A stretch of DNA of 57,789 bases, filler included, from Squatina squatina (taxonomy: Eukaryota), in assembly GCA_031763465.1 (NCBI GenBank). It is 3 parts of 3 records of this genome, joined end to end, with 100 filler letters (N's around TTAATTAATTAA, not from the genome) between each part and the next. Parts side by side here need not be neighbours in the genome. Positions count along the whole stretch, not along the records: positions 1 to 27,956 come from JARFOE010000168.1; 2 more parts are not named here. The stretch is one strand, 5' to 3'. The notes below the pieces were generated by a model. It saw only the letters and a program-made list of their open reading frames with translations, was not told where the DNA came from and made no database searches. Positions 262 through 22,290 of this stretch are shown here, one piece after another. How positions within the stretch are numbered: position 1 is the stretch's first letter; each line of letters opens with the position of its first letter. The position numbers and the translations under genes were made by a program.

Positions 262-461
262 ATTTTCCTGTAAGGAAGACACTGGACTCTAAGGGTGTTG
301 TTGGAAGCCAGGAGGTCAGTGGTGATAAAAGCCAGATAGGGACTTAGTCTGGCATTGAGCCATTCATCCTGCTCTATGTCACTGAGCCCAGGCAAGCTGT
401 TGACAAACTGAGGCCACAGACCCTCTATGATGGCAGCTCGGTTAGCATCTGTCAGATTANN
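262..461 (-). CDS. Mesothelin-like exon, about 200 nt, paralogous to 22535-22734; acceptor lies in a 10-N gap
   Basis: NLTDANRAAIIEGLWPQFVNSLPGLSDIEQDEWLNARLSPYLAFITTDLLASNNTLRVQCLPYRK, open frame, donor GTAAGT. Confidence 0.85.
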
Positions 462-1204
462 NNNNNNNNGAAAAGTGAAATGGGTTTGTTATTGTTTTAG
501 ATATATAAAATTATAAATGAGATGGCTGAGTTTACCATGTTTGGTGTTTGTTCCAAGCAGATGTTGAACTTTTATCTACTCAATTTTCTTTAGCAACCAC
601 CTAAGAGGAGGCTGACTCTCACAAAATACATTTATACAAATGCCTTAAGATCTCATTAGGTGGCTTGGTGTCAAATTTTGTTTTGATAATGCTCCTGTGA
701 ATCGCCTTGGGATGTTTTACTACGTTAAAGGTGCTATATAAATGCAAATTGCTGTTGTGCTGTAATCTTTGGGTAAGGCACGTTTAGCACAGTTTCAGAG
801 AGGATACTGTTTGTGTTACAGCTCAGTCCGATTCCTGTACTTATGCCTCCATAGAGCTTGGCGACAGCCAAGAAGGTAAACGGCTACAAACCGATGCTCA
901 AGGTATTTAATATATTTTTACATTTAGTCATAATTCTCAAAATGTTTAATATTCAGCCTCCTGACTAACAGAGCATTCTCCTTTGGTTTAAGGTGGGAAG
1001 CAGCACACAGTCGCTGATTCAGAAGAGGGTGAGTCAATTATTTCTTTCAAGATGCTATTCCTAATGATCTCCCCGCCTCCTCTCCCTCCCTGTGGTACCT
1101 CAGCTGCCATGGCCATTCTACCATGGCCAAAAGCAGTTGTGGCCCGATGATTTATCTCCCTGTTGTTCGAGTTGCCAACTCTGGTTAGATGTATTCCTGG
1201 AGGT

Positions 1205-1496
1205 TAAGAGCATAAGAAATAGGAGCGGGAGTAGGCCATTTGGCTCCTCGAGCCTGTTTCGCCATTCAACTAGACCATGGCTGATCTTCTACCTTAACGC
1301 CATTTTCCTGCACTATCCCCATATCCCTTGATTCCCTTAATATCTAAAAAAAATCTAGTGATCTCTGTCTTGAATATACTCAATGACTTGAGTCTCCACA
1401 GCCCTCTGGGGTAGAGAATTCCAAAGATTCCCTACCCTCTGAGTGAAGAAATTTCTTCTCATCTCAGTCCTAAATGGCCGACCCCTTATTCTGAGA
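1205..1496 (-). mobile_element. CR1 LINE 3' end
   Basis: Tail CATAAGAAATAGGAGCGGGAGTAGGCCATT shared with copies at 26965, 44295, 52843 and 55446; a shorter copy lies at 2453-2580. Confidence 0.8.
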
Positions 1497-2713
1497 NNNN
1501 NNNNNNNNNNNNNNNNNNNNNNNNNNNNNNNNNNNNNNNNNNNNNNNNNNNNNNNNNNNNNNNNNNNNNNNNNNNNNNNNNNNNNNNNNNNNNNNNAAGA
1601 AGCGTGGACTCCATGGGTGACCTTGTAAACTCAGAAGGTGATCTGAAAATAGTTCTTAATCCTCTGTTAACAAGGTTATAATGGCCTGAATTGCCTCCCC
1701 CACCGCTCAACGCTGACAAACCCAACATTTGGGAAAGGTGCTTGGCACCACGTTGACAGTGGAGTCCTGACCCGCTGTCAAGGAAAAACATTTTCCCACC
1801 CGACCCACTACAGATCGCGCCAGATGACCTCCCATAAAATTCCTTCCTAACTCCTTTGCTCTAGCATGTGTTGCTTGAGTTTCTGAATTATAATTTATGA
1901 AAGCTTCTGAACCTTGGCTTGAAGCTAATCTCTATGGATATTAAATGCTTTTAGATCAAAGATATAAAAGTCAAGTCACTCTCAAACTCTAACTTTAATG
2001 TTTGTCATCAAGGACAGCTTTGAACAAACTTGTTAATCACTACAATTTTATTGAGTTTTAATATTTAGTAGATTACTAAAAAATAATCACTATGTACTGT
2101 GTGGACATATTTAATATGCTGTGTATATAAAATGAGTTCTGACCAGGACAACAGCATAGTTACTCATTTTGTATGCTAATTCTATAAAAGGGAGATTAAT
2201 GTTATTTTCTGGATGGTGCTACCTTTGACTCCTGGTGGATTTGGAAAATAGAAAAGACTTTTGATGGGTTGATTTGGTTATAGAATATTTAAATATTGCT
2301 GCATCAACCGTGATTTGATCAAATTCTGTGAAATATTTATTCTGTGGTTTTTTTGGGGGTTTAGTTTTGTATACAGTGGCAGAACCATTCACAGATGAAC
2401 TGGATTAGGAATTTAAAATCTAGTATTTGCATTTTCAGGAGGAAACTTAATTACATAAGAATTAGGAGCATACAGCCCCTCGATCCTGCTCCACCATTCA
2501 ATAAGATCATGGCTGGTCTTCGACCTCAACTCCACTTTCCTGCCCGATCCCCATATCCCTTGATTCTGCTTGAGTCCAAACTAAGAACCAAAGAATTACC
2601 ATCCATTCATATGCAGTCTTAGAATGGAGCAACTCTACAACTACTTTGTTTTCTCAGAGTGTAAACTGCCACAGACGTTATTGTGTGAAACTCTGGACTG
2701 CGATGTAGCTTAC

Positions 2714-2795
2714 CTTAGCACATGCGTAGTCTGTAATGTTGAAGTTGCACAGTTGGGTCATGTTAACTTCAGTCAGGAAACTATTCAAAGCTGAA
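2714..2795 (-). CDS. Exon, 82 nt, phase 2-0, starting a new Cys-containing module
   Basis: TCTCTCCCACAG|..|GTAAGC; SALNSFLTEVNMTQLCNFNITDYACAK. Confidence 0.85.
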
Positions 2796-3066
2796 CTGTG
2801 GGAGAGAAAAAATTTGATTCTTAGGAAAGATATTACACTGAGGAACAAACAACAGGACAATTTCCTTTGAATTCTCAACATGTCACATGATTTGAAACTA
2901 ATCAAACTTGTGGTTTATGTTTTATAACGGTTTTGAATTCATGGACATGAGATGCTTTGGGTATCTTCAGTGTCAGATGAAATCACGCACCAACAAGTTG
3001 ACAGGGTCACTAAAACAAGGCCTCATTTAAAGCAAGGTAGAAAAGGTATTCTCCTCAAATTCTTAC

Positions 3067-3094
3067 CTGTTCACAGCTGCACACAATGCTGTTT
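3067..3094 (-). CDS. Micro-exon, 28 nt, phase 1-2
   Basis: TTTTCAAACAG|AAACAGCATTGTGTGCAGCTGTGAACAG|GTAAGA; ETALCAAVN. Confidence 0.78.
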
Positions 3095-3186
3095 CTGTTT
3101 GAAAAGTAGAAAAAATATTAATATGTAGTAATTATCATACTGAAATTAACTGGTGAAATTATAACAAGTGTAGAAAAAGCACTCAC

Positions 3187-3208
3187 CATTAACTATGGTT
3201 TTACCAGG
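3187..3208 (-). CDS. Micro-exon, 22 nt, phase 0-1
   Basis: TTTTTCTTCCTTAG|CCTGGTAAAACCATAGTTAATG|GTGAGT; PGKTIVN. Confidence 0.78.
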
Positions 3209-3481
3209 CTAAGGAAGAAAAAGCACAGTAACAGATTTACTACGGAACCATCTTACGTTTATAATAAATGTAACATGATAAACTTTGCATGTATGTAAAT
3301 ATTATTGTAGGTTTTCATAAAATACTAAACCAATGGATTTTCCATCATCCACACATGTTTAAAAGCAACAAGTGTGCAAATTTACTGAAATTCAACCAAA
3401 ATTTTGGCTTTCAAAACACATGGGGCTAGAAATTGGATTGAAAACTGACACTTGAAAAAACAAGTGTCGACTCTGTCTTAC

Positions 3482-3501
3482 CGTATTTTCAGGTTGGGGT
3501 T
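3482..3501 (-). CDS. Micro-exon, 20 nt, phase 1-0
   Basis: TTTATTTTCAG|AACCCCAACCTGAAAATACG|GTAAGA; EPQPENT. Confidence 0.75.
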
Positions 3502-3971
3502 CTGAAAATAAAACAAAATAGTTAATGTTAAAAGGTAGTCCTGATAATGTGTTACTATTCTTAACCACACCACCCCATTATACTAAATTGCACTCATAGT
3601 TACTGATCTCAGAAGGAAGAGGAAATATTTCTGAAATGTCACATTCCCTTTGGCACGCTCACCCAATCCCATAATACAATGTGTCCACAGCTGATGTTTG
3701 ACACGTACGGTACATGTAAAATCGACGGACCTCACGGTAAATGTTAGCCCCTGAAAGCATCTGTCACTGCCTTGGCTGTGCTACCCCTATGGATTCCTGA
3801 CATAATATTATAATCAATGTGTGCAATTAGTAAAAAATAGCAATAAAACCAAAAGTGCAGAACTGTTATCACCGAGAAATTGTGTTGAAAGTGCCACGGA
3901 AGCTTTCATGTACACAACAAAAAACAACTGATATTTGAGCATGATACTTCCTGGTTTCAGCAAGGAATTAC

Positions 3972-4131
3972 CTGATGAATTATCTGGAATTCCTCCCGTC
4001 AACCCAAGTCTCCTCACTTCAGACTCAGTGTGCGAGGCCACCCAAACGAGCACTACAGTTTCATTCACTCCACGTTTAAGAGCTTGAAGGTGATATCCAA
4101 GCAAGTCGATCAGATTCTGGGAATTCAGTTT
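3972..4131 (-). CDS. Last mesothelin-domain exon, 160 nt, phase 0-1
   Basis: TTCCAG|..|GTAATT; KLNSQNLIDLLGYHLQALKRGVNETVVLVWVASHTESEVRRLGLTGGIPDNSS (cf. MSLN LGLQGGIP). Confidence 0.9.
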
Positions 4132-4940
4132 CTGGAACAGAAAAAACATTTGATGAATGAATACAACACGTTAGATTTCACACCTTATCAGAAACTTGCT
4201 CTTTATTAACTTGATAGCATGAAATCAAGGTGCAGGATGGGACTGGCAATGTTGGATTTGAACTAGTGATAAGTTGGTAGTATTTAGGATTCCTGACAAG
4301 AAGGTTCCTATATTACTGAGTACAAGGTACATATTTCACATTTCAAGTCTGTTTGAGTTATATTCTAACAATCAGTGATGATGGTCACCCCAGTAAGTGG
4401 TCCCCACTTCTTATGATCAGGAGTATGCCTGGTAGTGCCCAATGTATAATTACATAATTGCAGAACTTGAGGACGCAACAATAGCATCACCTTCAGTTGT
4501 CACCTAGATAGCGCATCCTTCACATGCGCCCTCATGTATGCTTGTCCCATCTTTCAATAGGAAAACTAAAAATCGCACAGCATTGCCATGCGTTAGCACT
4601 TCAGCCAGAAAACAAGTTACTTGACCTTTGTTCTCACAGTTTACAATATCATTTGAACCACATGCCCAGTGTCCACTGTATTCTTTTGCTAAGATGTCTA
4701 TTATTTAGAATTCTAAAGCATTTACTGTGGGTTTTGCAGCCTTTCCAATCATTATATTTTCAATCATATAACACCAGACACAAGTAGCTGGTGGTTAATT
4801 CTACAATGACATGCTATCAATCAACAGCGATGTTTCAGGGTCAGCATGTACAGTCGATGGGCTGAGAATGAGATGTGAGGTAAAGAAACTGGAATCACTG
4901 CCATACTAATGTAAGCAGACCATAATCATACTGTACATAC

Positions 4941-5035
4941 CTTCACTTCTTCAGGATCCAAACCCTTGAAGGTTGCAAAATCCATGTTAACTCTGCTATT
5001 TGCAAGATACTTCAGATCATCAGCTGGGGCACCAC
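4941..5035 (-). CDS. Mesothelin-domain exon, 95 nt, phase 1-0
   Basis: TCTCCAG|..|GTATGT; GGAPADDLKYLANSRVNMDFATFKGLDPEEVK (cf. MSLN GGAPTEDLK..MDLATF). Confidence 0.92.
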
Positions 5036-6006
5036 CTGGAGAAAACAGCAACATTTGTAACCTTCCCTCTCCGGTATAGCAAGTTATACACATTGGCGAT
5101 GAACTATGAGGGGAAAGCGAGTACGGAAATGTGTATTTGTGCCAGAGGGGAAGGCGGCCTAAAAAGCAAGGACGAAACCTTGGACGATTTCTTGGGATAC
5201 TGCCCCAGTGACCTCTTGAAAGAATTTTCAATGGGGAAGCAGCGGCTGGCCCTATCCATGTTCAAGTAGCAGTTTGGCAGAGTTCCTGAGCACTCCACTG
5301 ATCCTAAGCTTGGTGGGAGCATACTTGTGTTCCGTACTGGGCCATTGACATTGCAGAACTGAGATAATTGAAGCAAGACCGCATCTAGCTTCCCCATTGG
5401 AGTGGCAGAGAGCTGCTCGGATTTCCTGTCAACAATTGGGACAGGAACCTCAGTAGTCCCTTTATGGGCATGGGTAGCCTCACCCAAATATTGAAAGGAT
5501 TTGAGACTGAGTCCTGATCCAGCGCACTTCTCGTGGTGGACTGATGCTCCTGAAATTCCAGCTCCAGTGAAATCATTCGTCTGCCATTATTGTTTGTCCA
5601 ACAGCATTCATCATTATGTAATACAATGGAGTTTTAACTGGTTATTTCTGCTCATTTTGTCAAATTGTAACAAAGTTGGATCAGCAATAGATTAAAAATA
5701 TAATGAACTCATCAAAAATGAGCACACATGAAATGAACGGAGTTAGCTATTGCAGATGGTTAAACTGCAGCAATATTTCTGCATACACCTGAAGGTCCTT
5801 AAGCCTTGTCAATCTGAGCCTCTGAATTAGGTTAGGTAAGTGGAGTGTGCTTCTACAGTGACATCATGTGAATTCCAGATCAGACAGGCAGAGACTCTGC
5901 CTGTGGGCACCTCAGAAGCTTAGATTGAAGACTCAAATATGAAGATGGATTTTCCTTGTGAGTCAGACACCTGGCTGAGTGGGAAAAAAAGCCTAATTTT
6001 ACTCAC

Positions 6007-6140
6007 CAACATACACCTTTATCAGGTGAAAGTAGGGGATCGGGTTACTTTGCTGAGAGCTCAGTGTAGAGAGCGCCTGACGGTAAAGCAAGATTTTCTT
6101 CGATTGTGTGCACACAGAAAGATCCAGAGCTCCTGCATCC
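6007..6140 (-). CDS. Mesothelin-domain exon, 134 nt, phase 2-1
   Basis: CCCACAG|..|GTGAGT; DAGALDLSVCTQSKKILLYRQALSTLSSQQSNPIPYFHLIKVYV. Confidence 0.9.
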
Positions 6141-6581
6141 CTGTGGGAGAAAGGTTATAATGTTCATCTTGTTCAATTCGAACTTTTACTGACAATATCA
6201 ATTCGGTGACGCATGTCAGGAAGGGCATGTGAATTCACTGGGAGACTTTAGCAGAGGGAAGGATTGGCTCCTGCTGTGATGCTTTCCAAAGGCAAATATC
6301 CTGCTCACTTGCTATCTAGGCTCACACTCAAAGAATAGCTGTTTGAACTGGGTACAGACCCGTGACAAACGTAGGTCAGAAATGTTCAATGTTCAAAAAT
6401 CAGAAGTGGTTGAGCCAGTGAGAGCATTCCGTCAGCTGTGAAGTTGTTCCATAAGATGTCTCCTCATCACTGTTTGCTTCACAATTACACTGCACTAAGT
6501 CACTTGCTAGACTAACTATGGTTCTGATGGAGTCACATTTCACTCGTCAGGAAACTTGCAAAGAAAAGATGCGACACTTAC

Positions 6582-6709
6582 GTCAAGTTTGAAATTGTCA
6601 TCAGCTGATTTTCATCCAGAGTACACAAGTTGGCTCCACCAATAGCTTTCAATGAAACTGCGTTTAGAATACCACCTAACTGGAGGTATCTTGTAATGAG
6701 GAATTTAAC
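6582..6709 (-). CDS. Mesothelin-domain exon, 128 nt, phase 0-2
   Basis: TCTGCAG|..|GTAAGT; VKFLITRYLQLGGILNAVSLKAIGGANLCTLDENQLMTISNL. Confidence 0.9.
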
Positions 6710-7147
6710 CTGCAGAAAGGATTTTTAAAATTATTCATAACTCACTGTTACATAGAAGGATCTATGATTTAAGATGCTCCTTTATTTGATGCTCATTTTA
6801 CCCAAATTTACAACTACACAATATTTAAGTAACATTCCAATAATTGTACTACTCTCCTTCTGGGAAATATCTATCAATAAACCTTTTAATTGAACCCCAT
6901 ATATTATTTCTCTCAAATTTCCAATGTCCCATTGCCCATTTCCAGCCATTACACACGCTGCCCAGCTTCCTGCAGCTGTTTCAAAACAATGTTTGCTTAA
7001 CACTGACCCAAGAAGATCCCGGTTTCATGGAAAGACTGAAGGTCTGAAACATTTCAGAGAGCAAATTCCAGATTTCAATCATGGTCAAGTCACCCTATGT
7101 CTGCAGAGACCAATATTTTCACATTAATATTCTCTTAGTTTCAGTAC

Positions 7148-7294
7148 CGTTGTGTTTTCCAGCCGTTGCATCATTAATGCGGAAAGTGTCTCAACTTGAG
7201 TGATATTCCAATTGCTGACTTCTGTTGCATTGAACACTGTGGATATGTTGCCCAGCAGCTGAATCTGGTTTTCTGGTAGCCCATTGGGATACAT
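7148..7294 (-). CDS. Mesothelin-domain exon, 147 nt, phase 0-0
   Basis: AAACAG|..|GTACTG; MYPNGLPENQIQLLGNISTVFNATEVSNWNITQVETLSALMMQRLENTT (cf. MSLN YPQGYPES..WNVTSLETL). Confidence 0.92.
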
Positions 7295-7722
7295 CTGTTT
7301 CAAGAAACCCAAACAATAACATTCAGTTATTTTGTTGGCAGTATTCAAACTCAGCTTCAAATTCCATTTTGGATCTAGAATACTAAGCTACAGATTGATT
7401 TCAAGATTTGTTTGTTAAACCTTGAACTTACTAGCAGGAATCGTTACTTTAGAGTCGGGGCGGGTGCATGCGGGCCGCCGTCCTGAACTTTTCAACAACG
7501 CGTTCTGCAATGCGCCTTTAACTCAATTGTACCAATTGAAACAGTCGTGTGGGTTTCCAGGCCAATTAAATGCAGCAAGTCTGATGACGTCACCGGTGAC
7601 TCGCTTTCAGCTCAGCTATTTAAAGGAGCCTTGCATACATCCCAGTTGAAGGAGGTATACTTGTGCTTGGGAGAAGTGGCTATTGCTCTATATCGAAGAG
7701 ATTTGTGTGAGTGCAAGCAAAG

Positions 7723-9190
7723 ATGGAGTCACAGCGACAGAAGGGTATGCCCAGGTTCTCAGATGCCTCGCTGGAAGTCCTTGTCCAGGGAGTAAGAGCA
7801 CGCAGGCAGGACCTATTCCCTGGCTGCGGCAGGAAAAGAGCAGCCAGGAAAACCAAGAGGGCATAGCTAGAGACCGACCAAGAAGTGAGCAGTAGCAGTT
7901 TTATCAGCCACTCCTGGATTCAATGGCAGAAGAGATTTAATGATCTAATGAGGTCAAGAAAGATGAGTGCAATGCCACATTCAACCATATCCTGATATGC
8001 GTGTCACCCCAACCCTATCACTCTGCCTTCCCAAGCCTACTCCTGCATATCAATCCTCACACCAACCTACCTTGCAGGTGCACCCATCCTTCACTGTCTA
8101 TGCACCTACACATCTTCATCTGATTAATCACCACTGACACTCACCCTCATCCCAAAGCAATCCTACAAAGTAACACCAATCAATGGAGGCATTTTAGCAA
8201 TGTCACACTACTCCCTCTTAGTCACCCTCTACATCCCTTACACTCATTTCATCGCTCTCAAAGTTCTCTTCTTTCTCTCCTTGCACAGAGAGAGAGAGAG
8301 AGAGAGAGAGGGAGGACCGGAGGTGGCCCTCCAATATATACAAATTTGATGCCTGCAGAGGAGGAGGCCCCTGAAATAAGTGGAGTGACAGAGCTGCTGG
8401 CAGTGGGAGACGGAGAGAGGGGCACCGCCCGGTGACAGAATTAAATATTCCACATGGCATACAACAGTCACTCATGGTGATTAATGTTAGCAGCCAGTGA
8501 AATATCATCATGTGCATAATGGTAATGTTACACATTCTTATCAGAAGTGGTCTAATTCATCTCTCTGTCTCCCACAGGTCCTTCACAAGCTCCCCCCTCA
8601 CTGTCCAGCCGGAGGTGGAAGACGACGACTCGGAGGAAGCTCCATTCTCTGAGGATGGAGACTCATGTGTGCCTAGCACCAGTGCAGTTACGCGCATGTC
8701 AGGGGGTCCAGTGCGACATGTATTGCTTGCCGTGAACAACAGATTGCATAGTCTCATTGACTTCATCTCTAGGAGGGATACCAACATAGACTTGGGCCTT
8801 CATCGCCCCACTGATGTGCAGCAAGGTGCTGCCCACTTTGTGCGGGTGGTCCACGAGAGGGATGATGGTCAGAGGAGACATGGAAGTGGGGGCCATGCTC
8901 GAAGTGCTCCCACTTCTCCCTCGCTGTCTCCCCTTCAGGCAGAGCCCCACATGCTGCCTCAGATCCCGATGGTCAGTCTGCCCCTGCACAGTTGCAGGAG
9001 GAGAGGTCTTTGGCAGTGCCCTCACAGGCCCTAAAACCCAGAGGACGTCCGCCAAAAGTGTCAAAGCAGTCACAGCAGGGAAGTGAGCAGGCTGCCTCTA
9101 CCTCTGCTGAAGCCATAGAGGTTGCACCTCATAGAAGCACTCGAAAAAGGAAAAAGACACAATCGTAGATGCACACGGGTATGCACATGG
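7723..9190 (+). pseudogene. Harbinger Myb/SANT-like DNA-binding protein gene, about 3 exons, disrupted
   Basis: MESQRQKGMPRFSDASLEVLVQGVRARRQDLFP..TKRA*LE..SWIQWQKRFNDL (TAG replaces the usual Trp; donor reads ATGAGT); second exon RTGGGPP; third exon acidic and low complexity. Confidence 0.8.
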
Positions 9191-9497
9191 GCGTTTACCA
9201 AAATGTTAAGTTTCAGTTCTACTCATGACGCACGTAAATTTATTTCTTTGCACTACTTTTCAGTTTTGTCCATTTTTGCTTGCTACCTGGGAGTGAATGG
9301 TGAGACATTACTTAACCTTGAACAATGGGTGCTGGTTGACATGAAAGGTTTGGTCATTTTAGGACTACTTTGAGGTGCTGGTGAGGGGGCGGGGGGANNN
9401 NNNNNNNNNNNNNNNNNNNNNNNNNNNNNNNNNNNNNNNNNNNNNNNNNNNNNNNNNNNNNNNNNNNNNNNNNNNNNNNNNNNNNNNNNNNNNNNNN

Positions 9498-9790
9498 GCA
9501 TTAATTTCCTCTTTAACCAGCAACGCTACCCCACCTCCTTTTCCTTTTTGTCTGTCCTTCCTAAATATTGAATATCCCTGGATGTTCAGTTCCCATCCTT
9601 GGTCACCTTGCAGCCATGTCTCCGTAATCCCAATTATATCACACCCGTTTACATCTATTTGCGCGATTAATTCATTTATTGCAAATGCTCCACGCATTAA
9701 GATACAAAGCCTTAAGGGTTGTCTTTTTAACATTCTTAGTCATCCTAGATCCGAGCATTATTTTGCACTATGGCCCTGTTTGTTTCTCGC
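9498..9790 (-). mobile_element. CR1-type LINE ORF2 endonuclease fragment nested in the Harbinger element
   Basis: DIIGITETWLQGDQGWELNIQGYSIFRKDRQKGKGGGVALLVKE, APE endonuclease motifs; runs into a gap. Confidence 0.88.
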
Positions 9791-9794
9791 CCTT

Positions 9795-10526
9795 GATTGG
9801 AGGGAGGGAAGACTGGCGCAGGAGAAGAGTCATGACAGCTGCCAGGGAATCTGGCACACACATGCATGATGATCTTTTTATGCTTACAGATGAGCTGCAC
9901 GTTTAGGGAGAGGAGCCTTTCAAGTCTACGAACATACCTGGGTGATGTGGGGTTGCCCTGATGGACACATGGGTGCAGTCAATGGCACCCTGCACCTGTG
10001 GGAAGCCAGCCAGAGGCGCAAAGCCGAGCACCCGCTCAGTAACACTGGCCTTATCAGTAGCAACATTTACATAAGTGACTAACTTGTGAAGCATGGCATC
10101 GGTCACTTGGGTGATGCATTTGTGGGTGGATGACTGCGAGATCCTGCAAATGTCTGCTGCAGATCCTGGAAAGAGCCCGAAGCAAAGACGTTGAGGGCGG
10201 TGGTGAGTTTGACAACCACTTGTGAGGCATGTCCACCAGGTCCTCTGGGTAGCAGGTCTTCTTCCAAATGTCTGCGATGACCTGGCGTGATAGCCTGAGC
10301 CTCCTGAAGCACTGCCATTCAGTAATGTCCAGGAAGCTCATCCTCTGCCTTTGTACCCTGCGTTGGGGTATCGCCTCCAGCGCGGTGCACCCCTGGGCTG
10401 ATACCCGCTCTCCCGTGAGGAGAAAGTTGCTGGTGCTGTTGATGCTGCTTCTGGTGTTGTTGATCCTGGGGCTCATTTGGGTCCAAATCTGAGGTCCAAG
10501 GTGAGATTGCATAAGCGGCGCCCATG
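9795..10526 (-). pseudogene. Harbinger (HARBI1-type) DDE transposase, frameshifted and truncated
   Basis: Across frames: [66 protein letters not shown]. Confidence 0.88.
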
Positions 10527-11147
10527 CAGATCTGATAGATGCCAGGTAAAGTGGAGATCAGATCCTTCAATGTAGTGACAGTAACTTACAAAGTGCCTTC
10601 CGAGGTTGCAAACTCCTGAAAGCAAAATCGCTGCACAAAATGGTGTCAGCAATTGGGTGTAAGCCAATGATTGGTCCAGTGAGGTTCCTTAGGCTTTGAT
10701 TGATGGTAAGGGTACAAGGAGGGGTCCTGACAGCCATAAAAGGTAGAAGGTTTCAGGAAGAATCCAGGGGACACACAAGAGACAGAGAGAGCCAAGAGGC
10801 ACAGGATGCGGCCTACTCACAGTCATGTCTTCTCATCAGAGCATAACGGGGTGCTGTAAGTCTCAATTAGACTCTGTAAACTGCTGTTCTAATGCTATAT
10901 TGTATTGCTTGTGCTGAATAAAGTTAAATCACTTTCACGATATGGGTCAATTCAAAGCTTTTAGAACCAAGGTGCCTCTGGGATCCTTACACTGGTCACT
11001 TATCTCATAGCTATTTGTGACACCTTCTTTTGTGCAAAGTGGTGGTCACATTTCCCTACATTATAACACCACTGCAATGTAAAAGTACTTAACTTCCTGT
11101 GAAATGTGGGATGTCCTGAGGTAGTGAAAGGCACTATATAAATGCAA

Positions 11148-11372
11148 ATACAAAAGCAAAATACTGCAGATGCTGGAAATCTGAAATAAAAACATCCTGC
11201 AAATACTCAGCAGGTCAGACAGGGTCTGTGGAAATAGAAAAAAAAGTGTTAATGTTTCAGGTTGCTGATCATTCGATAAACCTGAGTCTGACGAAATGTC
11301 ATTGGCCTGAAACTTCTTTCTCCACAGTTGCTGCCTGATCTGCTGAGTATTTGCAGCACTTTCTGTTTTTAG
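11148..11372. mobile_element. Inverted-repeat (Penelope pLTR-like) element inserted in a SINE tail, with a 10-bp target-site duplication
   Basis: Arms GCAAATACTCAGCAGGTCAG..TGTGGA and TCCACA..CTGATCTGCTGAGTATTTGC; ATAAATGCAA at 11138-11147 and 11373-11382. Confidence 0.7.
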
Positions 11373-11418
11373 ATAAATGCAAGTTTCTTCTTTCTGTCTT
11401 TACATCAAGCTTACATAC

Positions 11419-11597
11419 CTGCATTAGTCTCTTTTTCAGAACTTTCAGTTGACTAGGATTAAAGGCAAGAGATCCCAGTTGGAGGACATTGTTTTTCAGC
11501 ACAGGTTTACTCAAACAGAGGTCTAACTGGTCAGCATCATAGATTGCAGGTGTCAGGTCATTAATGGTTTCTGCTGCTATCTGTCCCTCTGTACAGT
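11419..11597 (-). CDS. Mesothelin-domain exon, 179 nt, phase 1-0
   Basis: TTTCCAG|..|GTATGT; NCTEGQIAAETINDLTPAIYDADQLDLCLSKPVLKNNVLQLGSLAFNPSQLKVLKKRLMQ. Confidence 0.92.
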
Positions 11598-11912
11598 CTG
11601 GAAACATAAACCTCTATTAGTTATAATATTTCAGTTTGCTGGTAATCTTGCTCTCAAAATATCAGAAATGACCTTTTTAACAAGGACATTCCTGGATTAT
11701 TGAAAGGAAACACTGGTGAAATTACACATCTGCAGTTGAATATTTTAGAATCTCTTTGTTATTGCTGCATACAGTGAAAATAACTACCCGTTACCTTATT
11801 CTGACACCTGCGGAACAATGGGCACTCAACACAAAGCTATATGGGGTGAGGGGTCATGTAAGGATACTGCATGTGCCCATTATGGTCCTCTCATTCCACT
11901 GATGCTCATGAA

Positions 11913-12086
11913 CAACGTTCCCGTTAAGGTGCCTGCGCGCAAGGCCGCGCAATAATCTGAAAGGTCCAGCGCAGGCCGCTTACCGGCTTTTACATTGTAA
12001 ATGCCGCACATGCGCAGAAATTTCAAGGGACACGCATTGAAAGAAACAGGCTGCGCAGAACAAAGCGCAGCTTACGGGAAACTTTG
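11913..12086. mobile_element. hAT-type MITE
   Basis: Imperfect TIRs CAACGTTCCCGTTAAG and CTTACGGGAAACTTTG; 8-bp flanks CTCATGAA and CTCATCAA (7/8). Confidence 0.7.
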
Positions 12087-12182
12087 CTCATCAAATGAGG
12101 CTGTATCACATTCATAAAAGCTCAGTCCTGTCCTATCATTGATGAGTTATGCCCCACATACATAACGGTGCTTCTCTTGTAG

Positions 12183-12345
12183 CATCCTGGAACTCCCAGC
12201 CTAACGAGCACTGTGGGAGTACATTCACCACACGGACTGCAGCAGTTCAAGGCGGTGGCTCACCACCACCTTCTCGAGGGCAACGAGGGATGAGCAATAA
12301 ATGCTGACCTTGGTAGTGACACCCACATCCCAAGAATGAATATAG
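12183..12345 (+). mobile_element. LINE 3' tail fragment
   Basis: GGACTGCAGCAGTTCAAGGCGGTGGCTCACCACCACCTTCTC..AATAAATGCTG..CCCACATCCC, recalled as a shark LINE 3' end. Confidence 0.6.
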
Positions 12346-12463
12346 AAAAGGACGCGACTGGGAGTGGACTGCACATGGTTCGGCAGGGGAGCGACGTAGT
12401 TTAAAACAATAATTTTAAATGCCGGGAGAGATCGGAAAATATAGAAAAATACTAATTACATAC

Positions 12464-12584
12464 TTGCTGTATTGGTTGATTTTCCTCGTAAATTGAGCTG
12501 ATTTATGAATAACAGCACGTCGCTGGGGGGTCTCAATCTTTTCGCTTTTCTGATAAATCTTGGGAGAGCTTCATTTAGGGCAAG
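12464..12584 (-). CDS. Mesothelin-domain exon, 121 nt, phase 0-1 (linker where MSLN carries its furin site)
   Basis: ATGTAG|..|GTATGT; LALNEALPRFIRKAKRLRPPSDVLLFINQLNLRGKSTNTA. Confidence 0.85.
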
Positions 12585-13250
12585 CTACATGGGACAGAAT
12601 GTGAAAAGCTGAAGAAATTCACTGAAAAGATAACTGATTTCACACAGTCCCTGATTTGCCTGCGGTAACATTTGCAAGGAAACATATTTCACTGATGAAA
12701 ATATTTGCCGGAAAACATCAGTGCTATTCTGGAAAGAATCGTGACTGCAGGACAAAGGGAAGGTTGCCATGTCATCCACAGCCCCACCCTCCAACATCTT
12801 AAATTCAATGTGAGCCACCGGTGCTAAGTTGGTAAAAGAACATAAGCACAGGTAAAAGCAGCTCTGCGTAGAGTTCTGAATGAGCCTCACCAGATTCTAA
12901 TGAAAGCTACAATGATTTAGAAACCAATACATCTTCAGATCCAATTCTGAGTCTCCAAATATAAGGTTCAACAAAAGCACCACAACCACATTACAGGTCC
13001 GTGACAAACTGCCCAGTTCATGAAGTCACCACGTATGCCATCGTGATTTCAAACTGGAACTCATTTTTATGCGGGTGCCAATGTTTTCCTTAAATAACAA
13101 GTGTTCATCACATGGGATTTGAATCACCTAAGGTTTCGCAAGAACAGGCTTTAACTGAAGAGACTATTATAGTCCAACCAAGGAACTCGTCAGGGTTATT
13201 GTCTCACAAACTTAGCTATCGGAATCAATTTTAAACCGAATAAAGCATAC

Positions 13251-13338
13251 CCTGTTTACTTGACTCCATGTGTCTGTCAAAGCCAACGGAAGATTTCCGA
13301 GATCATGTATTGTAGATGACGACCAGGATGAAGGAAGA
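13251..13338 (-). CDS. Mesothelin-domain exon, 88 nt, phase 2-0
   Basis: TCTGTAG|..|GTATGC; LPSSWSSSTIHDLGNLPLALTDTWSQVNR. Confidence 0.9.
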
Positions 13339-14117
13339 CTACAGACAAACAAGAAACTCTCAGTTGAAGAGTACATTGCTATAAGTGCCAGCTTAGAACT
13401 TAAACCCACATGTACCCACTGTGATTCAACAGTTAATAATCTGCAATGGAAGTCCTCTAAATATTCATCCTCAAACTTTTCTGAATTACACTGAGCAATT
13501 TTTAAATTTCCAAGCCCAAACGTCACCTTACTTTCAAAATCATTCCCATGGAAATATATAGGCATTTTTTCAGTTGGGATGTGGAGGAAGGAAAAACTTC
13601 AACATAAAGAAGAACCCTTTTCACACACAAGTATAACTACCTTTCTTCTGGCCGCAGGCTGCTAGAGCAGTCAATAGAGTGCTTAGGAATATAGGAATTG
13701 CTAAACAAAAACAGACCAAGGTTCATCCTGTTCACCTTCTACCATCCTGCGAGTCACAAGATACAACGACATGGAGTTGTTGACTAATCATGGCGATCAA
13801 TCTCTATCAATTAGTCTACAACAAACCCAGACATGGGGTGAGGAAAGTCCCAGCGGCGCAAAGCTTTCGGAACCGTAGGTCCACAGTCGCTTGTTCTTCC
13901 CAATCAAGCATGTACCTCCCCATACTGGAAGTTGGCAGGTTTCAGGTCCAAGTCTGCTGTTATTACCTGCTTCTACTGGGGTATACATGGGGATTGTTGT
14001 ATGGACAGTATCCACATTCCCCTTAGAAAGTTTACAGTATTACAAGAAGCAATGAAGCATGAAATTAAGAAACTCTGGTTTCATCTACAAGGAAATTCGG
14101 GAACATTTCACACTCAC

Positions 14118-14308
14118 CCGTATTTGCTGGCTTCACTCTGAAGTAGACCTTCAATTGCTCTCTTCTGATCCTCTCTGTATGAGGTGCAATTCTTTAATGC
14201 ATCCAAAATGGAAATATCAGATTCAGTGATAATGGATCCCTCGAGGTCACAGACCAAAACACCCAGTACAGCCACACTTTCCTTCGTCAGATTCCTGCCA
14301 GAAATTCC
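14118..14308 (-). CDS. Mesothelin-domain exon, 191 nt, phase 0-2
   Basis: TTCAG|..|GTGAGT; GISGRNLTKESVAVLGVLVCDLEGSIITESDISILDALKNCTSYREDQKRAIEGLLQSEASKY. Confidence 0.92.
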
Positions 14309-15405
14309 CTGAATGTTTGGCAAAATGAGCAACATTAATTCAGCAGCAGAATATGTTTTTTTGCACACAAATGAAACTCAGTTCATCTTTACCATTTGAA
14401 GACTACAACAGTTGCATGAAATAACAGTGCCATAATTCATCGACATTATCAAGAAAATATGAGAATTTTTCATCTTGTCTTGGACTTCATTGAAAACTCA
14501 GATTGCAGCTTCCGCTAAATGAATCCCAAAATATTTTCCCACTCATCAACAGTGCGGCAGTCAGTCCTTTTGTAGCATTCTAGTGTGAGGGGAATGAAGT
14601 GTAAATGAGGAAAGTGTATGTTATCCCGAAAAAATCTTTGGAAGTGCAGTCAATGTTGTTTTGTAGACAAACACAGGAGCCAATTTACACACAGCCAGGT
14701 GACACAAATCGGTAGAAAGGCCTCTGGTTAACTTTGCATGTGAAAGACAGCACCTCCCATAATACAGCACCAAGTGCCAATATAGATTCTGTCTTCATGT
14801 ACTGAAGTGGGACTTTAACCCACAAGTTTCTGACACACAGGTAAGAATGCTAACGCTGAACCAAACTGACACTAAGTGAATTAACAATTTTGTGGTTAGC
14901 AGGTTCAAGATGAAACAAGATGCAACATATACACTCTGCTAAGCAAAGACAGTGAAGCATGCTTCAGAATTCTTTTATTACAGGCTGGAACTCTCAAAGA
15001 AAGGGACTATTTCGAGTAGTCCATCAGTGTATTAAAAAGCTTAGAAATGATATGATGTTCCATATCATGATAGGAATGCTCACTTTGTAAGCACAGCCTA
15101 CTGCCTTTGTGGCCACTAAAGGGATTTTATTCCATTGATGTAATGACGTAACACCCTCTACTCATTCCTACATTCTAAAATTCTTATATTCTGACCCATG
15201 TACCAATGATCAAAACGCAAAGCAAATACTGACCACTTTTGAAAGGAAGTAGCTATGGTAAAGTGTGAAGAAAGGCTTCCACCCCCTAGGCCTGGGCACG
15301 GAGGACAACGGTCATATCCATGCCACTAGAACTGGCGTCCAGTAACTGAGTTATCCTCAGTTTATTGTGACCATGCCTAACACTTCGGTTTGTACTGGCT
15401 CTTAC

Positions 15406-15535
15406 CAAACAGGTTGTGGCATCATGCAACATATTTCGGCTTCTTGCTGATCCTTTTCCTAAGATATTAATGTTTGATTTCCCAACTAATTTGAAGAATG
15501 TCTGGCAGTTGGAGAATCTCCTGAGGTCTGCAGAG
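15406..15535 (-). CDS. Mesothelin-domain exon, 130 nt, phase 2-0
   Basis: TTTGTAG|..|GTAAGA; SADLRRFSNCQTFFKLVGKSNINILGKGSARSRNMLHDATTCL. Confidence 0.9.
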
Positions 15536-16419
15536 CTACAAAGTGAAACAGGAGATGCATTCAGATTATTTTAAAGGAGGATGAACAGATTGATTGGTGA
15601 CTTCCCCAGTCTCAATTTCCTCTCCTTTTCTCCCTTCCTCTACTCAAGGCACACACACAGACACATGCAGATACAGACATATACAAACACACACACTCTT
15701 CCAAGATGGATATCAGTGTCTTCCACCCCCTAGGCCTGGACACCGAAGACAATTGTCACACCCATACCACTGCCTTCACACCATCTCATTTTGAAACATT
15801 AATTTATGCATTATATCCACAATGAAATGATTAAATATTAGAATTTTTAAAACTTGCTCATTGAGCCAAATTCAATCTAACCAACATTCTATGCTGTTCT
15901 TCTGTTTTCATCCTGGCTTATTCTACAGTTATTTTTTCAATAGATGTCTCAGAGGCATATATCCTTAACACCAAACATCATTCACAAACAGCGGTAAAAT
16001 AGTAGGTGACCTGCTCCTGGCTGCTGAGTGCAGGTACAACTCGTTAATACCATCTCTAATTGTCAGCCTCCTCTGCTGGCGATGTGCATCTTCTCTAATA
16101 ACTGTCTTTTCTATCTCGACACTCTTATTTCATTTTTCTCTTTCATTCATGGTTTCGGTGGAAGTGAAAGATCTACAAAGCTACCAAAACATGCGAGGAA
16201 ATCACATACTTTTGGAAAATGGTCTCAATCACAGTCAACTTTTCAAATTTTCCAATAGGTCACATTGATGAGGAAACAAATACACTTTTGATCAATGCGC
16301 TAGAGTTATATCGCAAAGGAAATTACAAGTTAAAAGCGCTCAAGGGTCATTACAGACTTCATTATCAAAGCTCTATTCAACAAAACAACTGAGGAAAATT
16401 CTGATGAAATATAACATAC

Positions 16420-16505
16420 TTGAAGAACAGCAGCACATCCACTGGGAGGGTGTCAATGGCTAATCGAGTTCGATTAGAAGTTAGTCTAGCAGCCATACAG
16501 TCCAG
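16420..16505 (-). CDS. Mesothelin-domain exon, 86 nt, phase 0-2
   Basis: TTTCAG|..|GTATGT; LDCMAARLTSNRTRLAIDTLPVDVLLFF (cf. MSLN LRCLAHRL..LPLDLLLFL). Confidence 0.92.
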
Positions 16506-17199
16506 CTGAAAAGAGAGGCCACAAATTCATGTTGAGAACAGAAACATAAAAACCTACATTCGTTGGTGATGTTCCACAGTACACCCCGTTTTCTTTTGTT
16601 GCAAATGGCGTTCCCTGAGGTTGGTGGCCAGCAGAAGATAGGAAGTTTTGCAAAATTGCAACAACCAACATCTCACCTCCACATAAACCATAACTTACGA
16701 CTCGACTCAGCTGCATCTCAGACTTAAAGTAAGTTTCACTCACATTTGCGTCCTTGGAAAATTGGCATGTGTCTACTTGAATATCAAGTAGACTTGAGCT
16801 ATCACACATGTTGTTAACTCAATCAATCTTGCAGTTAGATAGTTGAATGAGTATCTTACACTGCCAAATGTCCATGCTGTAAGGTGCTGTGCCTCAGTCA
16901 TTTGGTCAAGGTTGACCATGGCATGCCGTTTTGTCACATTATACCCTAGCCCTGATATTACAGGGGAGATTTAACAAATTTGTGCTCCTGGCACTGACCT
17001 TTGGTGCTCAGAGCACAAAGCATGAATTAGAGCATGGAGGTCACTGAGTCCCATAGGATTTTTCATTCATTAAAATTAATTTGAAAAATATACTCTGTTA
17101 CTTTTATATTTAAACCAATCCATCAGCAGCAATGGGAAATGCACTTAATGGGAATGCACTCAAACATTCCTCCAATGTGACTTTTGTGAATGACCTCAC

Positions 17200-17320
17200 C
17201 TGATTTTCATCAAGCACGACCCCTTTACCCTTCATTGCTTGAACAAGTTGAATAAATGTAGTAAAATTCAGGGTCTTCACTGCACCACAACTGAAGCCTT
17301 GCAGGACAGTGGGTGAGAAT
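17200..17320 (-). CDS. Mesothelin-domain exon, 121 nt, phase 2-0
   Basis: TTTCAG|..|GTGAGG; FSPTVLQGFSCGAVKTLNFTTFIQLVQAMKGKGVVLDENQ (cf. MSLN LLGFPC..KLSTEQ). Confidence 0.92.
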
Positions 17321-18040
17321 CTGAAACAAATAACGACATTAATTCATTTCTAAGTAACTCAATTTCTTTGTCATTTTCAAACCTGCTATCACAATCTCTA
17401 CATCATTTATATTTGCAACACAATCATCCATTGAGTGACTGGATCTCGACTATTACACATTTTTGGATTTTACCTGTCTGAACACTGAGATACTGAGCCT
17501 AACTTAACAATCACGAGGGACTGAGTTGTGAAACGAGGGCTTTCACACTTGCATGACTGTACTTTAGGGAACTTTTCAATCAGAAATGTACTCTCACTTG
17601 GGCCAAATCATTCACCTCTATTTAATGATTTCAGTTACCACTAGATGCAAGTTCTGCTGCAGCCTAATGTGGTTCATTGTGTGCCTGAAATCTTGATCTT
17701 ATAGTTTAGAGCAGGTGTGAACAGGAACTTGTGGATTATAGGGGACACATTGTCCAATTGGAGCTCCCAATGGTGGGATCCAGAAATAGTCATTGTCATT
17801 GCACTGGACAAAATATTCAGCTGGTAAATGTAACTCTGTGAAAGATAGTGGGAGCATTCTATTCACAACAGGTTTAATTACTGACTTGAACAAACTATAA
17901 CTCAGTTCCGTGGGGAGAAAAATCTGCTCTACAGATTATATATCGAAGCTCAAACAAAACTAAACTACACAGATGATGATAAAGACAGACAGAAGATGAT
18001 AGGTAGAGAACCAGTTAATTTGTCAAAGAATATTGCTTAC

Positions 18041-18090
18041 TTCTTAAAATTCTTGCTGCTTCTGACCACATATTCAAAGAACACAGCAGA
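18041..18090 (-). CDS. Mesothelin-like exon, 50 nt, phase 0-2
   Basis: CCCACAG|..|GTAAGC; SAVFFEYVVRSSKNFK. Confidence 0.85.
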
Positions 18091-18300
18091 CTGTGGGACA
18101 AAAACACTTAAATCATTAATATACACAATGGTGTTACAAACTGCTCCAATACGAATGTAATTGGACTGGGACAACACGCTAGATAGTGTTATGTCAGGTC
18201 TGATTTTTAAACTTATCTTTGAATTAATGCACATTTGCCAGCTGCAGCTGAATTTCTTTCCAGGCACTGCCTTCGACAGTCAAACAATAGAATCATTTAC

Positions 18301-18438
18301 CTGACTGGGAACCCACTGTTTGTTGTTGACATCATTGAGGCTGAGGTTTGAAGTTAACAGCACAGGTGGGACCTCTTTGGCTAGAACAGATGGAATGTTC
18401 TTTACTGTTGTTACAGAGTCATTTACATTCCGCAACAC
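18301..18438 (-). CDS. Mesothelin-like exon, 138 nt, phase 0-0
   Basis: CTCAG|..|GTAAAT; VLRNVNDSVTTVKNIPSVLAKEVPPVLLTSNLSLNDVNNKQWVPSQ. Confidence 0.88.
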
Positions 18439-18621
18439 CTGAGTTAGAATGAAACAGAATATAATTTAAACCAGAACGTACAACACCCTGTGAGCAGCAC
18501 CTGAAGATGAAAACAGTCTTCAGACCAGAGCATCAACATTGAAGAAATGGAGGCAGAAGTAGGAAACAAATTAGATTTTAGGTTAATTATAATGCATTGA
18601 TATATATCCCATGTCACTCAC

Positions 18622-18792
18622 CTGCAGAACACAGATCAGCTGTATAGGTTGTGGTGCTGCTGCAATATTCTCAACTAATGTCGGGTTTGAGATTACATCG
18701 ATTAACACCCCAGGATCAATGCGCTGGAACACACCGCTTGGAATACCAGACACCAAGCTTCCCAGACCCAACAGAGTCTGTCTGCTATTGAC
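18622..18792 (-). CDS. Mesothelin-like exon, 171 nt, phase 0-0
   Basis: AACTAG|..|GTGAGT; VNSRQTLLGLGSLVSGIPSGVFQRIDPGVLIDVISNPTLVENIAAAPQPIQLICVLQ. Confidence 0.88.
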
Positions 18793-19669
18793 CTAGTTAA
18801 AAATCAGAAGACAAACCAAATGCTGTCAGAAGATGTCACAGGAATAAATCAGTTTTCCACCTTTTGTGACATAACAGTGCGATTACAAACTTGTCCGGCT
18901 CCCCCCGCAATTGTTCAGAGAAAAGGTGATGAACGATAACATAAAATATTCTGCTATCACTTCAGTTGGCTTCACCTCTCCACACTTGGCTTAAGGTTCA
19001 ATTCCTCTTAGTTTACACAAGAACCTGGATCCATAAGGACATGATCATTGGAACTCATGTAATAAGGTAATGATGGACGTGGCATAAAGGACACCTGTTT
19101 AAAATGTAATATTTAAAATTTGCTAATTCAATTGGACTCGTCAAAAAGGTGAGTTTTGGTTTGAGAATAAATCTGGTGTCGGCCATTTTTGCAGAGGTAA
19201 TGTTTAACAAAAAAACCTTCATAAGGTGCCAGTGATCTGAAAGTTGTCATCTCTATCCCATTCTTCTCAGACCTCCATTTGGAGCACACAAATACAATTC
19301 TGCCAGAACAATTATATGAAGCTAGATTTAATGACAACAAGGAGAATGTGGCTCTCTGTTCATTGATAGTCTTCCACCATCCACAAACATAAAATTCATT
19401 GCATCAGGCTGGATCTGCTTCTACACCAGATTTTTAGCCACTCCAGAGACACCAATTTGGTTTACTACGGCAGTATTCTTTACATGCCAGTGAATCATCT
19501 GTAATGGTCTTTCAGATGTATACTGCACCACACGGTATTAAAAATATAGCCACTAAACTAGTAAGCCAGCACACATCAAATATCACTGTCTTTAGAGCAG
19601 ATGAAATGTTCATCCGCTTCATTCAGCCGTCTATCACTATAATGTATTTCTGATTTAGTCAACTTTTAC

Positions 19670-19882
19670 CTGGAAGCCATTTTTGAGTAACGTGGTTACA
19701 ATCGCATTGGCCTGGCCAACATTCCAGCCTTTGACATTACCCAGGCTTGGCAGTGCTTGCTCCAGAGTGTTCCCATCGACACTGTTAATCTGTGACACAG
19801 ACAGTCCGACAGCCGTTTGTCCCAAAGTATTGAAAGTGCTGACTGAAAAGTTATCAATTTTGCTCACTAAAACTTTCTGCAG
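19670..19882 (-). CDS. Mesothelin-like exon, 213 nt, phase 0-0
   Basis: TTTTCCAG|..|GTAAAA; LQKVLVSKIDNFSVSTFNTLGQTAVGLSVSQINSVDGNTLEQALPSLGNVKGWNVGQANAIVTTLLKNGFQ. Confidence 0.9.
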
Positions 19883-19980
19883 CTGGAAAAGAAACAGAAA
19901 TAGCATTAATACTGGACGACTTTCTGAGCATGCACACCAAGTGAGATCACAATGTTTTGCAGCAAATCTTTCCTACTTAC

Positions 19981-20158
19981 CTTCAGTTGTTCATCTGTTG
20001 GACCATCAGCAGGTAATGATCCATTGGTAGTTGTGCGAGGTGGCACGTTCAGCCCACAGACTTGGTTTATCTTTCCGATCACAGCCAAGACTTGCTGTGC
20101 ACTCAAGGACTGAAGTAGATTAGTATCGGTAACGAAGCAAACCAGAGCGTCTGGCAGA
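19981..20158 (-). CDS. Mesothelin-like exon, 178 nt, phase 2-0
   Basis: TTTTACAG|..|GTAAGT; LPDALVCFVTDTNLLQSLSAQQVLAVIGKINQVCGLNVPPRTTTNGSLPADGPTDEQLK. Confidence 0.88.
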
Positions 20159-20884: not shown

Positions 20885-21009
20885 CTAGAAACATCAACAT
20901 TAGGATTGTTTTTGAGCAGCAAGTTGAGGTAGAACTTTGAAATTTCAGTGGATAACGTCAGATTTACCAGAAGTGCCAGGTTTTCAGGGTTTACAGCGAA
21001 TTCTTGAAG
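20885..21009 (-). CDS. Mesothelin-like exon, 125 nt, phase 0-2
   Basis: GCGCAG|..|GTACGT; LQEFAVNPENLALLVNLTLSTEISKFYLNLLLKNNPNVDVS. Confidence 0.88.
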
Positions 21010-22168: not shown

Positions 22169-22290
22169 CTAAAGATGAAATTTAATAACATTTTAGAATT
22201 TCATCTGCAGATCAAGTTCAATTACTGATAAGTTCAATTTAAAGCAACACAATAGAAATGAAGATATTATAATGATAGAACCAAAAAAAG

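Follow-up and report, generated by a model that had tools for sequence, protein, structure and literature searches.

Where does a mesothelin gene end when the signal that should close it is missing? The question is raised by a stretch of 57,789 nucleotides (nt) from the cartilaginous fish Squatina squatina (assembly GCA_031763465.1), hereafter the window, whose first part (positions 1 to 27,956, from record JARFOE010000168.1) carries a gene of the mesothelin family on its minus strand. The precursor of human mesothelin (MSLN) is cleaved by furin into MPF and a 40-kDa protein anchored by glycosylphosphatidylinositol (GPI), and the normal function of mesothelin is unclear, according to a published study (PMC10035497). 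An initial annotation of the window proposed that, behind the GGIP motif closing the mesothelin domain, the reading frame enters a new module and that the whole unit recurs head to tail in one very long protein, possibly a tether or a mucosal scaffold. Here we describe the gene and its homologues, which make a chained mesothelin architecture almost certain, and weigh what may become of such a protein after its synthesis.

The reading frame across the junction

On the minus strand, 29 exons with GT-AG borders, from 25962 to 2714, join in phase into 3,621 nt encoding 1,207 amino acids (aa) with no stop codon, 32 N-glycosylation sequons and 20 cysteines; the largest exon of this chain has 213 nt and its smallest intron 92 nt. 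Splice sites were scored with approximate vertebrate frequencies. As the initial annotation had stated, the frame does not close behind the GGIP exon, where neither a GPI signal nor a stop follows directly upon the motif, and it runs on through four further exons (3501-3482, 3208-3187, 3094-3067 and 2795-2714), of which the last indeed has the strong GTAAGC donor described there. All five junction exons (4131-3972 to 2795-2714) have an AG acceptor and a GT donor with serially compatible phases (1,0,1,2,0), and the junction lies wholly inside the gap-free stretch 1597-9397, which is flanked by N-runs at 1497-1596 and 9398-9497. The 877 bases between the GGIP exon and the cysteine module contain two in-phase micro-exons with a conserved peptide. 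These micro-exons (3482-3501 and 3187-3208) add up to 42 nt, their joint in-frame skipping is possible, and a shorter linker is found at some homologous junctions (the second unit of thorny skate, chimaera protein P0075).

The Pfam family PF06060 matches five of 20 exon-sized pieces of the window, in the right order, two of them above the gathering score (29.8 and 26.3 bits; cut-off 25.8), and the domain of the window is matched over its full length by a purpose-built hidden Markov model (HMM). Judged by this homology, it is a member of PF06060. No Pfam family matched the N-terminal repeat exons that were tested.

Homologous proteins and their mesothelin domains

A homologue search with the GGIP exon gave four cartilaginous-fish proteins and a search for longer proteins gave six, of 3,482-4,700 aa, while a search of 1.84 billion representatives gave 369 proteins, the best 150 of which were examined; clusters of 20 proteins supplied models from thorny skate (7,628 aa), zebra shark (7,881 aa), stingray (5,494 aa) and axolotl (6,351 aa). 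The window protein is 83.6% identical to residues 436-1642 of P0006 from the sevengill shark Heptranchias perlo, colinearly and over 1,207 of 1,207 positions, and 76.8% identical to P0005 from whale shark. Because both alignments span the junction, the open frame across it is not due to chance. The sevengill orthologue (84% identity) in turn scores 1,027 bits against PF06060, in four stretches.

Mesothelin domains were counted with an HMM built from 126 domains, which found five in each of the thorny skate and zebra shark models, four and a fragment in the stingray, four each in whale shark and sevengill (one of them partial in either case), four in killifish, three in axolotl and two in chimaera. 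Chains of two to five domains are thus present in sharks, skates, a stingray, a chimaera, axolotl and some teleosts (catfish, medaka and Hoplias included). Each internal domain is followed by the linker and the cysteine module, and a hydrophobic GPI-type tail stands only after the last domain; the domain count that had been suggested as a check on the chained architecture in shark, ray and chimaera homologues (two to five per model) therefore agrees with it. Units of the type seen in the window measure 1,241-1,263 aa and the last two units 1,437-1,455 aa. Together, the frame, the homologue models and the sequons bear out the proposal that a whole unit of about 1,260 aa, comprising helical repeats and a mesothelin domain, recurs head to tail in a very long N-glycosylated extracellular protein, whose length comes to about 8,008 aa when the skate-cluster protein P0011 is overlapped with the thorny-skate model, a cross-record estimate.

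Other long forms have different arrangements: a snake protein of 1,801 aa (P0032) has N-terminal repeats and a long Ser/Thr-rich stretch behind the domain, a medaka protein (P0009) has two domains with a Pro/Thr/Ser-rich stalk between them, and a lungfish protein (P0066) has a tandem pair of half domains.

Origin and rank of the units

The module behind the junction, which had been taken for a new one, is present, yet the protein already has it at its start. With an HMM made from the 108 residues behind internal GG motifs, the last exons of the window score 73 bits, and residues 26-131 right behind a hydrophobic N-terminus are matched as well, in P0011 with 69 bits and in sterlet, paddlefish and axolotl proteins with 27-33 bits; the module thus repeats the beginning of the mature protein, the part that stands behind the signal peptide. 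We infer that the head-to-tail duplication took in the gene body but left out the signal and GPI exons.

In a tree of 52 domains, those of cartilaginous fishes cluster by rank, counted from the C-terminus: the last domains (9 rows, including chimaera; SH-aLRT 100), the penultimate units of sharks and rays (8 rows; SH-aLRT 99) and the upstream units (16 rows; SH-aLRT 99), with the window domain inside the third group; the penultimate domain of chimaera forms an open fork with the penultimate and upstream clades. The nearest relative of the window domain is the third-from-last domain of sevengill (84%), and by orthology the window unit is third from the C-terminus. Teleost and axolotl units cluster by species. 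Near-identical adjacent units within a species (branch lengths 0-0.03) occur in stingray P0186, killifish P0176 and catfish P0015, which indicates that some units were amplified or homogenised recently, next to the old ones that are specific to their rank.

Parts of the neighbouring units are also present in the window. The copy of an upstream exon that had been annotated at 262-461 is an open exon, although only 262-459 are sequenced and its acceptor lies under N; it is open over 65 codons, ends in a GTAAGT donor and its DNA is 80% identical to 22484-22732. It is closer to the next unit than to the current one in sevengill (86 vs 77%), whale shark (80 vs 75%) and thorny skate (69 vs 58%), whereas exon 22734-22535 is closer to the current unit than to the next (85 vs 71%, 76 vs 66% and 65 vs 59%, respectively). 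Since either exon favours its own unit, the one at 262-459 is an old exon and not a collapsed copy, and unit-specific identity marks it as the orthologue of the next unit's exon. Residues 1643-2085 of P0006 found no match in 462-2713 at E up to 10, so that about 443 aa expected of the next unit are missing from what has been sequenced and must sit in a gap of 100 N. Residues 380-436 of P0006 have no credible match anywhere in the window, and no further exons were found between 462 and 2713 or beyond 27960. The window has 24 N-runs, with 100-N gaps concealing whole exon sets, and the 5' end of the gene lies beyond this scaffold piece. We assign a single exon at 27769-27902 to the preceding unit provisionally, because its similarity to exons of upstream units in catshark and stingray (82%) hardly differs from that to the exon of the same unit in sevengill (84%).

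Proteolytic processing and membrane anchoring

At the boundary between MPF and mature mesothelin, all 14 cartilaginous-fish domains scored from the last or penultimate position have an RxxR or Rx[KR]R site and no sequon, while all 17 scored upstream domains, that of the window included, have a sequon and no furin-type site; nor does Rx[KR]R occur anywhere in the 1,207 aa of the window protein. The scored domains are related to each other and include near-identical stingray copies. The scan missed the first domain of zebra shark, both last stingray units, manta and the last domain of chimaera; those that were inspected have the same pattern, except that the last stingray unit has only ISKR. In the last two units the furin-type site stands at the position where human mesothelin is cut, and in zebra-shark coordinates cleavage there would give pieces of about 6,100, 1,450 and 330 aa. 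Because furin-type sites are confined to the last two units, the window unit is likely part of an anchor-free piece of about 6,000 aa, and it is probably freed by cleavage further down the chain. The covalent membrane tether suggested by the initial annotation is therefore doubtful.

Predicted structure

The sawshark orthologue P0003, which is 70% identical to the window over the domain, was modelled with AlphaFold2 (40 sequences) as an all-helical protein, with a mean predicted local distance difference test score (pLDDT) of 78 and a predicted template modelling score (pTM) of 0.51; the boundary loop (residues 280-286) has low confidence and is likely exposed. Foldseek aligned its domain to human mesothelin at E 5e-11, the top eight rows all being mesothelin, and VIA did so with Z 18.7 and a root mean square deviation of 2.1 over 143 residues. 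The model thus predicts for the domain the right-handed ARM/HEAT-like helical solenoid. The two cysteine pairs named for human mesothelin, C302/C326 and C442/C468 (PMC10035497), fall where the human chains align to P0003, and the window protein has Cys at the equivalent places. A junction fragment of chimaera (P0075; 20 sequences), whose linker is shorter than that of the window, was predicted as all helical with pLDDT 86.5 (83-96 across the junction) and pTM 0.74. For the module behind the junction, nothing matched in Foldseek at E up to 0.001, which settles neither a new fold nor a known one, and the best hits in VIA (Z 6.3) were unrelated helical repeats.

Transcript and tissue evidence

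Two Logan records of the skate cluster, P0011 and P0166, hold an open reading frame (ORF) of 3,067 aa on a contig of 10,469 or 10,496 nt. The ORF of P0011 opens with a leader that is hydrophobic as judged by hydropathy, continues through a mesothelin domain and its GG motif and enters the module behind it. Such a contig, of which 9,204 nt are coding, fits only spliced RNA, since no exon in the window chain exceeds 213 nt and no intron is shorter than 92 nt. We infer that this ORF represents a spliced transcript across an equivalent junction. The catshark orthologue scyTo_0003439 (P0007) is listed among the proteins of Scyliorhinus canicula spermatozoa, where its supplement row (fold change -2, p 0.035, false discovery rate 0.214) gives no peptide positions and is hence silent on the junction (PMC11083954); mslna is present in one gene list from salmon skin (PMC12339338).

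Comparison with known proteins

The window gene resembles human MSLN (PF06060; PDB 7UED, 8CXC and 8CZ8; PMC10035497) in its domain, for which homology is found at E 1e-31 with the sawshark orthologue, in both cysteine pairs, in the GG[IL]P end motif and in the helical solenoid, and the last unit of the orthologues shares with it the furin site and the GPI-type tail. It differs from MSLN, a single unit of 622 aa, in having a predicted five or more units of 1,240-1,800 aa and a long N-terminal helical-repeat region outside the coverage of PF06060. Since the unit in the window lacks both a furin site and a GPI signal, and its residue at the position of W321 is not Trp, it is by its features not a canonical MSLN precursor.

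The mslna and LOC models of cartilaginous fishes are direct orthologues, alike in the order of their units, in the linker and in the pattern at the boundary (Heptranchias P0006, Rhincodon XP_048465576, Stegostoma XP_059510198, Amblyraja XP_032896963, Hypanus XP_059834805, Scyliorhinus scyTo_0003439 and Callorhinchus XP_007904336); they are automatic, mostly partial and have no described function. The giant architecture is thus already present in public models, where it is labelled, for instance, 'uncharacterized protein' or 'mslna', and we found no description of it in the literature, our search for a paper on a tandem mesothelin having left subscription journals mostly outside its coverage. 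Long mesothelins of bony vertebrates (teleost mslna and mslnb, sterlet, paddlefish, axolotl XP_069503376) likewise combine a signal peptide, the cysteine module, helical repeats, the domain and a hydrophobic tail, but their units cluster by species, which indicates separate, younger expansions; sterlet, salmon and others kept one mesothelin domain and amplified only the N-terminal repeats.

Otoancorin (OTOA) and stereocilin (STRC) belong to the same superfamily, are GPI-anchored and have a long N-terminal extension. Both are single units. They have been proposed to link epithelia to acellular gels, in a superfamily paper whose accessible part lists tetrapod sequences only (PMC2628672). Their homology to the N-terminal repeats of the window gene is no more than a lead: in the ESM Atlas the repeat region lies closest to mesothelin clusters and to otoancorin-like ones, the latter at 0.91 and 0.89 and again leads only, and neither the Stereocilin nor the Otoancorin_N Pfam domain matched any of 10 homologues at E up to 0.01. 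Unlike mucins, the window protein has 16% Ser and Thr, the long shark and ray models 15-16%, and no mucin-type Pro/Thr/Ser domain is present; N-sequons occur at 2.3-2.7 per 100 aa in these proteins.

Competing explanations

The account that we favour, and hold to be probable though not secure, is that the window contains one internal unit of a giant gene that cartilaginous fishes have for mesothelin, with everything between its signal peptide and its GPI signal repeated several times in one frame. Its predicted product, a precursor of about 8,000 aa, would be secreted and likely GPI-anchored; furin would likely cut it in the last two units only, freeing a helical, glycosylated piece, about 6,000 aa long, to which the window unit belongs, and this piece could serve as a long multivalent part of an extracellular coat or gel, kept near the cell non-covalently by analogy with otoancorin and stereocilin. 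Several observations weigh against this account. The homologues are mostly automatic gene models, possibly with common errors, the 52-domain tree is a quick version without bootstrap, and the placing of exon 262-459 depends on scaffolding over a 100-N gap. P0011 spans the first junction of the skate-cluster protein and not the third-from-last junction of S. squatina; the structure models are of the homologues P0003 and P0075 and not of the window protein; and tissue evidence is thin, amounting to the one proteome row (false discovery rate 0.214) and the one salmon-skin gene list. At the centre of the surface that binds MUC16, the position of human W321 is Asp in the window and Ala in P0003 instead of Trp, with Tyr at human position 318 retained. 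Furin cleavage, finally, is deduced solely from motifs, and these are uneven: axolotl units have weaker sites (KSKR, RxxR), and an extra RRRR occurs in upstream units of whale shark and zebra shark, though in none of window, sevengill and skate.

The same unevenness favours the strongest competitor, in which the chain stays uncut, or its pieces tightly bound, as one very long GPI-anchored tether or spacer. No strict site is found in the internal units of killifish and catfish, nor in 33 of the 71 tailed last domains (from all vertebrates in the set, many of them single-domain fish proteins); moreover, the cut site has been lost from the upstream units, the predicted fold is continuous at the junction, and for the related otoancorin and stereocilin a role as anchored links to gels has been described (PMC2628672). 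Against it stand the polybasic sites of the last two units, which chimaera, rays and sharks have all retained (14 of 14), at the human cut position and in a likely exposed loop, and we regard a permanent tether as rather unlikely. An improbable variant accepts the chain and lets the window unit also give a shorter membrane-bound isoform by reading through the intron. The hydrophobic run noted in this read-through (ALLVLLLFF) is there, but the frame does not end with it, as five more residues precede the stop at 3816-3814. Among the read-throughs of 29 donors, these 52 aa rank first in hydrophobicity (hydropathy over 9 residues 3.4, the next 2.1); yet the tail is unlike all seven true tails compared with it, 72 to 941 of 1,000 shuffles reaching an equal score, neither AATAAA nor ATTAAA occurs within 3813-2714, an equally hydrophobic end is found in 23 of 2,452 random GT read-throughs, or by chance about once in 4 over 29 donors, and the little-skate model P0158, which does stop at its first junction, has a short polar tail. 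We accordingly rejected the tail as a remnant of a GPI signal, given its dissimilarity to true tails, the missing poly(A) signal and its compatibility with chance.

That a cluster of separate mesothelin-like genes has been wrongly fused, by predictors and by the initial annotation alike, is very improbable. Databases do split the locus into adjoining LOC models (stingray LOC132398983-5, little skate), but these start and stop inside units and have neither signal peptides nor tails; P0011 passes a junction in one ORF, and the 877-base interval is occupied by the two conserved in-phase micro-exons. A signal-peptide exon was sought between 3971 and 2796, and the candidates were rejected, as the hydrophobic ATG-led frames overlap the read-through or pyrimidine tracts and none is conserved. 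The thought that the exon duplicates arose from a mis-scaffolded short-read assembly, to which the 24 N-runs and two linker joins might give rise, can be practically dismissed: the junction lies in a single gap-free stretch, and the exon copies differ by 20% and each fits its own unit in three other species.

If the chained precursor is real, the mesothelin of cartilaginous fishes is about 13 times longer than the human form. Features specific to unit rank have been kept since before the split of sharks and rays, and those of the last unit since the split of chimaeras, and the exchange of furin site and glycan site by rank points to selected processing. The locus is prone to collapse in short-read assemblies and to splitting by gene predictors. 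As a more speculative and on balance doubtful extension, a long, repeat-built mesothelin might be the ancestral form in jawed vertebrates, with the human cancer antigen as its last 620 residues; the array, older than the split of the cartilaginous fishes, would then be a programmed polyprotein, and the furin-freed poly-mesothelin rod of 6,000 residues would build gels of a so far undescribed structural class, other than mucins, at the fish surface and in the reproductive tract, with the anchored last unit capturing the rod at the cell surface.

Feature coordinates and other content of the window

Table 1. Features of the mesothelin gene and its surroundings, in window coordinates
Feature	Coordinates	Strand	Evidence or remark
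Exons 1-6, N-terminal helical-repeat region	25962-25751, 24637-24543, 24355-24228, 23573-23418, 22734-22535, 22168-22080	-	GT-AG, in phase; each matched to homologues by tblastn
Exons 7-12, N-terminal helical-repeat region	21626-21493, 21009-20885, 20158-19981, 19882-19670, 18792-18622, 18438-18301	-	GT-AG, in phase; each matched by tblastn
N-terminal helical-repeat region of the unit, exons 1-12	18301..25962	-	aa 1-613
Mesothelin domain, exons 12-25	3972..18438	-	aa 600-1152
Mesothelin-domain exons 12-18	18438-18301 (part), 18090-18041, 17320-17200, 16505-16420, 15535-15406, 14308-14118, 13338-13251	-	
Mesothelin-domain exons 19-25	12584-12464, 11597-11419, 7294-7148, 6709-6582, 6140-6007, 5035-4941, 4131-3972	-	
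Exons 19-20, position of MPF/mature-mesothelin boundary	11419..12584	-	N-glycan sequon, no furin-type site
Final mesothelin exon with GGIP motif, donor phase 1	3972..4131	-	Splice edges, Pfam, joined frame
Linker micro-exon, 20 nt	3482..3501	-	Splice edges, joined frame; linker of equal length in P0006, P0005, P0007, P0185
Linker micro-exon, 22 nt	3187..3208	-	Splice edges, joined frame
28-nt exon opening the cysteine module of the next unit	3067..3094	-	Splice edges, joined frame, module HMM
82-nt cysteine-module exon, GTAAGC donor	2714..2795	-	Splice edges, joined frame, module HMM (73 bits)
Exon of next (penultimate) unit	262..459	-	Acceptor hidden by N at 460-469; unit-specific match in three species
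100-N gap, must hide about 443 aa of next unit	1497..1596	.	P0006 1643-2085 unmatched between 462 and 2713
100-N gap, predicted to hide over 800 aa, with most of preceding unit and first 56 aa of window unit	27042..27141	.	P0006 380-436 unmatched
Single exon, probably of preceding unit	27769..27902	-	90.6% DNA identity to 21470-21640; AG/GT edges

The joins at 27957-28056 and 44195-44294 are 100 bases each (44 N, a 12-base linker with stops in all frames, and 44 N), and the window likely consists of three unrelated scaffold pieces. Exons of PPARGC1A (PGC-1 alpha) lie on the minus strand at 56628-56816, 47209-47538 and 44394-45065, the first of them 100% identical to shark proteins; queried in the ESM Atlas, a PPARGC1A exon gave no match. 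PPARGC1A and the mesothelin gene are probably not neighbours, since they lie on different contigs in three relatives: sevengill (198.6 vs 52.5 Mb), whale shark (178.3 vs 50.9) and bamboo shark (156.6 vs 60.5).

The 4.1-kb intron 7295-11418 contains a fragment of an endonuclease of the LINE type at 9500-9739 (PF03372, 23.9 bits, slightly below the cut-off), and broken frames at about 9900-10340, which have no Pfam match, resemble by motif what we take to be a transposase of the Harbinger type. One short repeat family recurs at the edges of N-gaps (1211-1282, 26961-27041, 44298-44377, 52843-52918 and 55446-55517); presumably it is a SINE, and contig breaks at such elements would fit its position.

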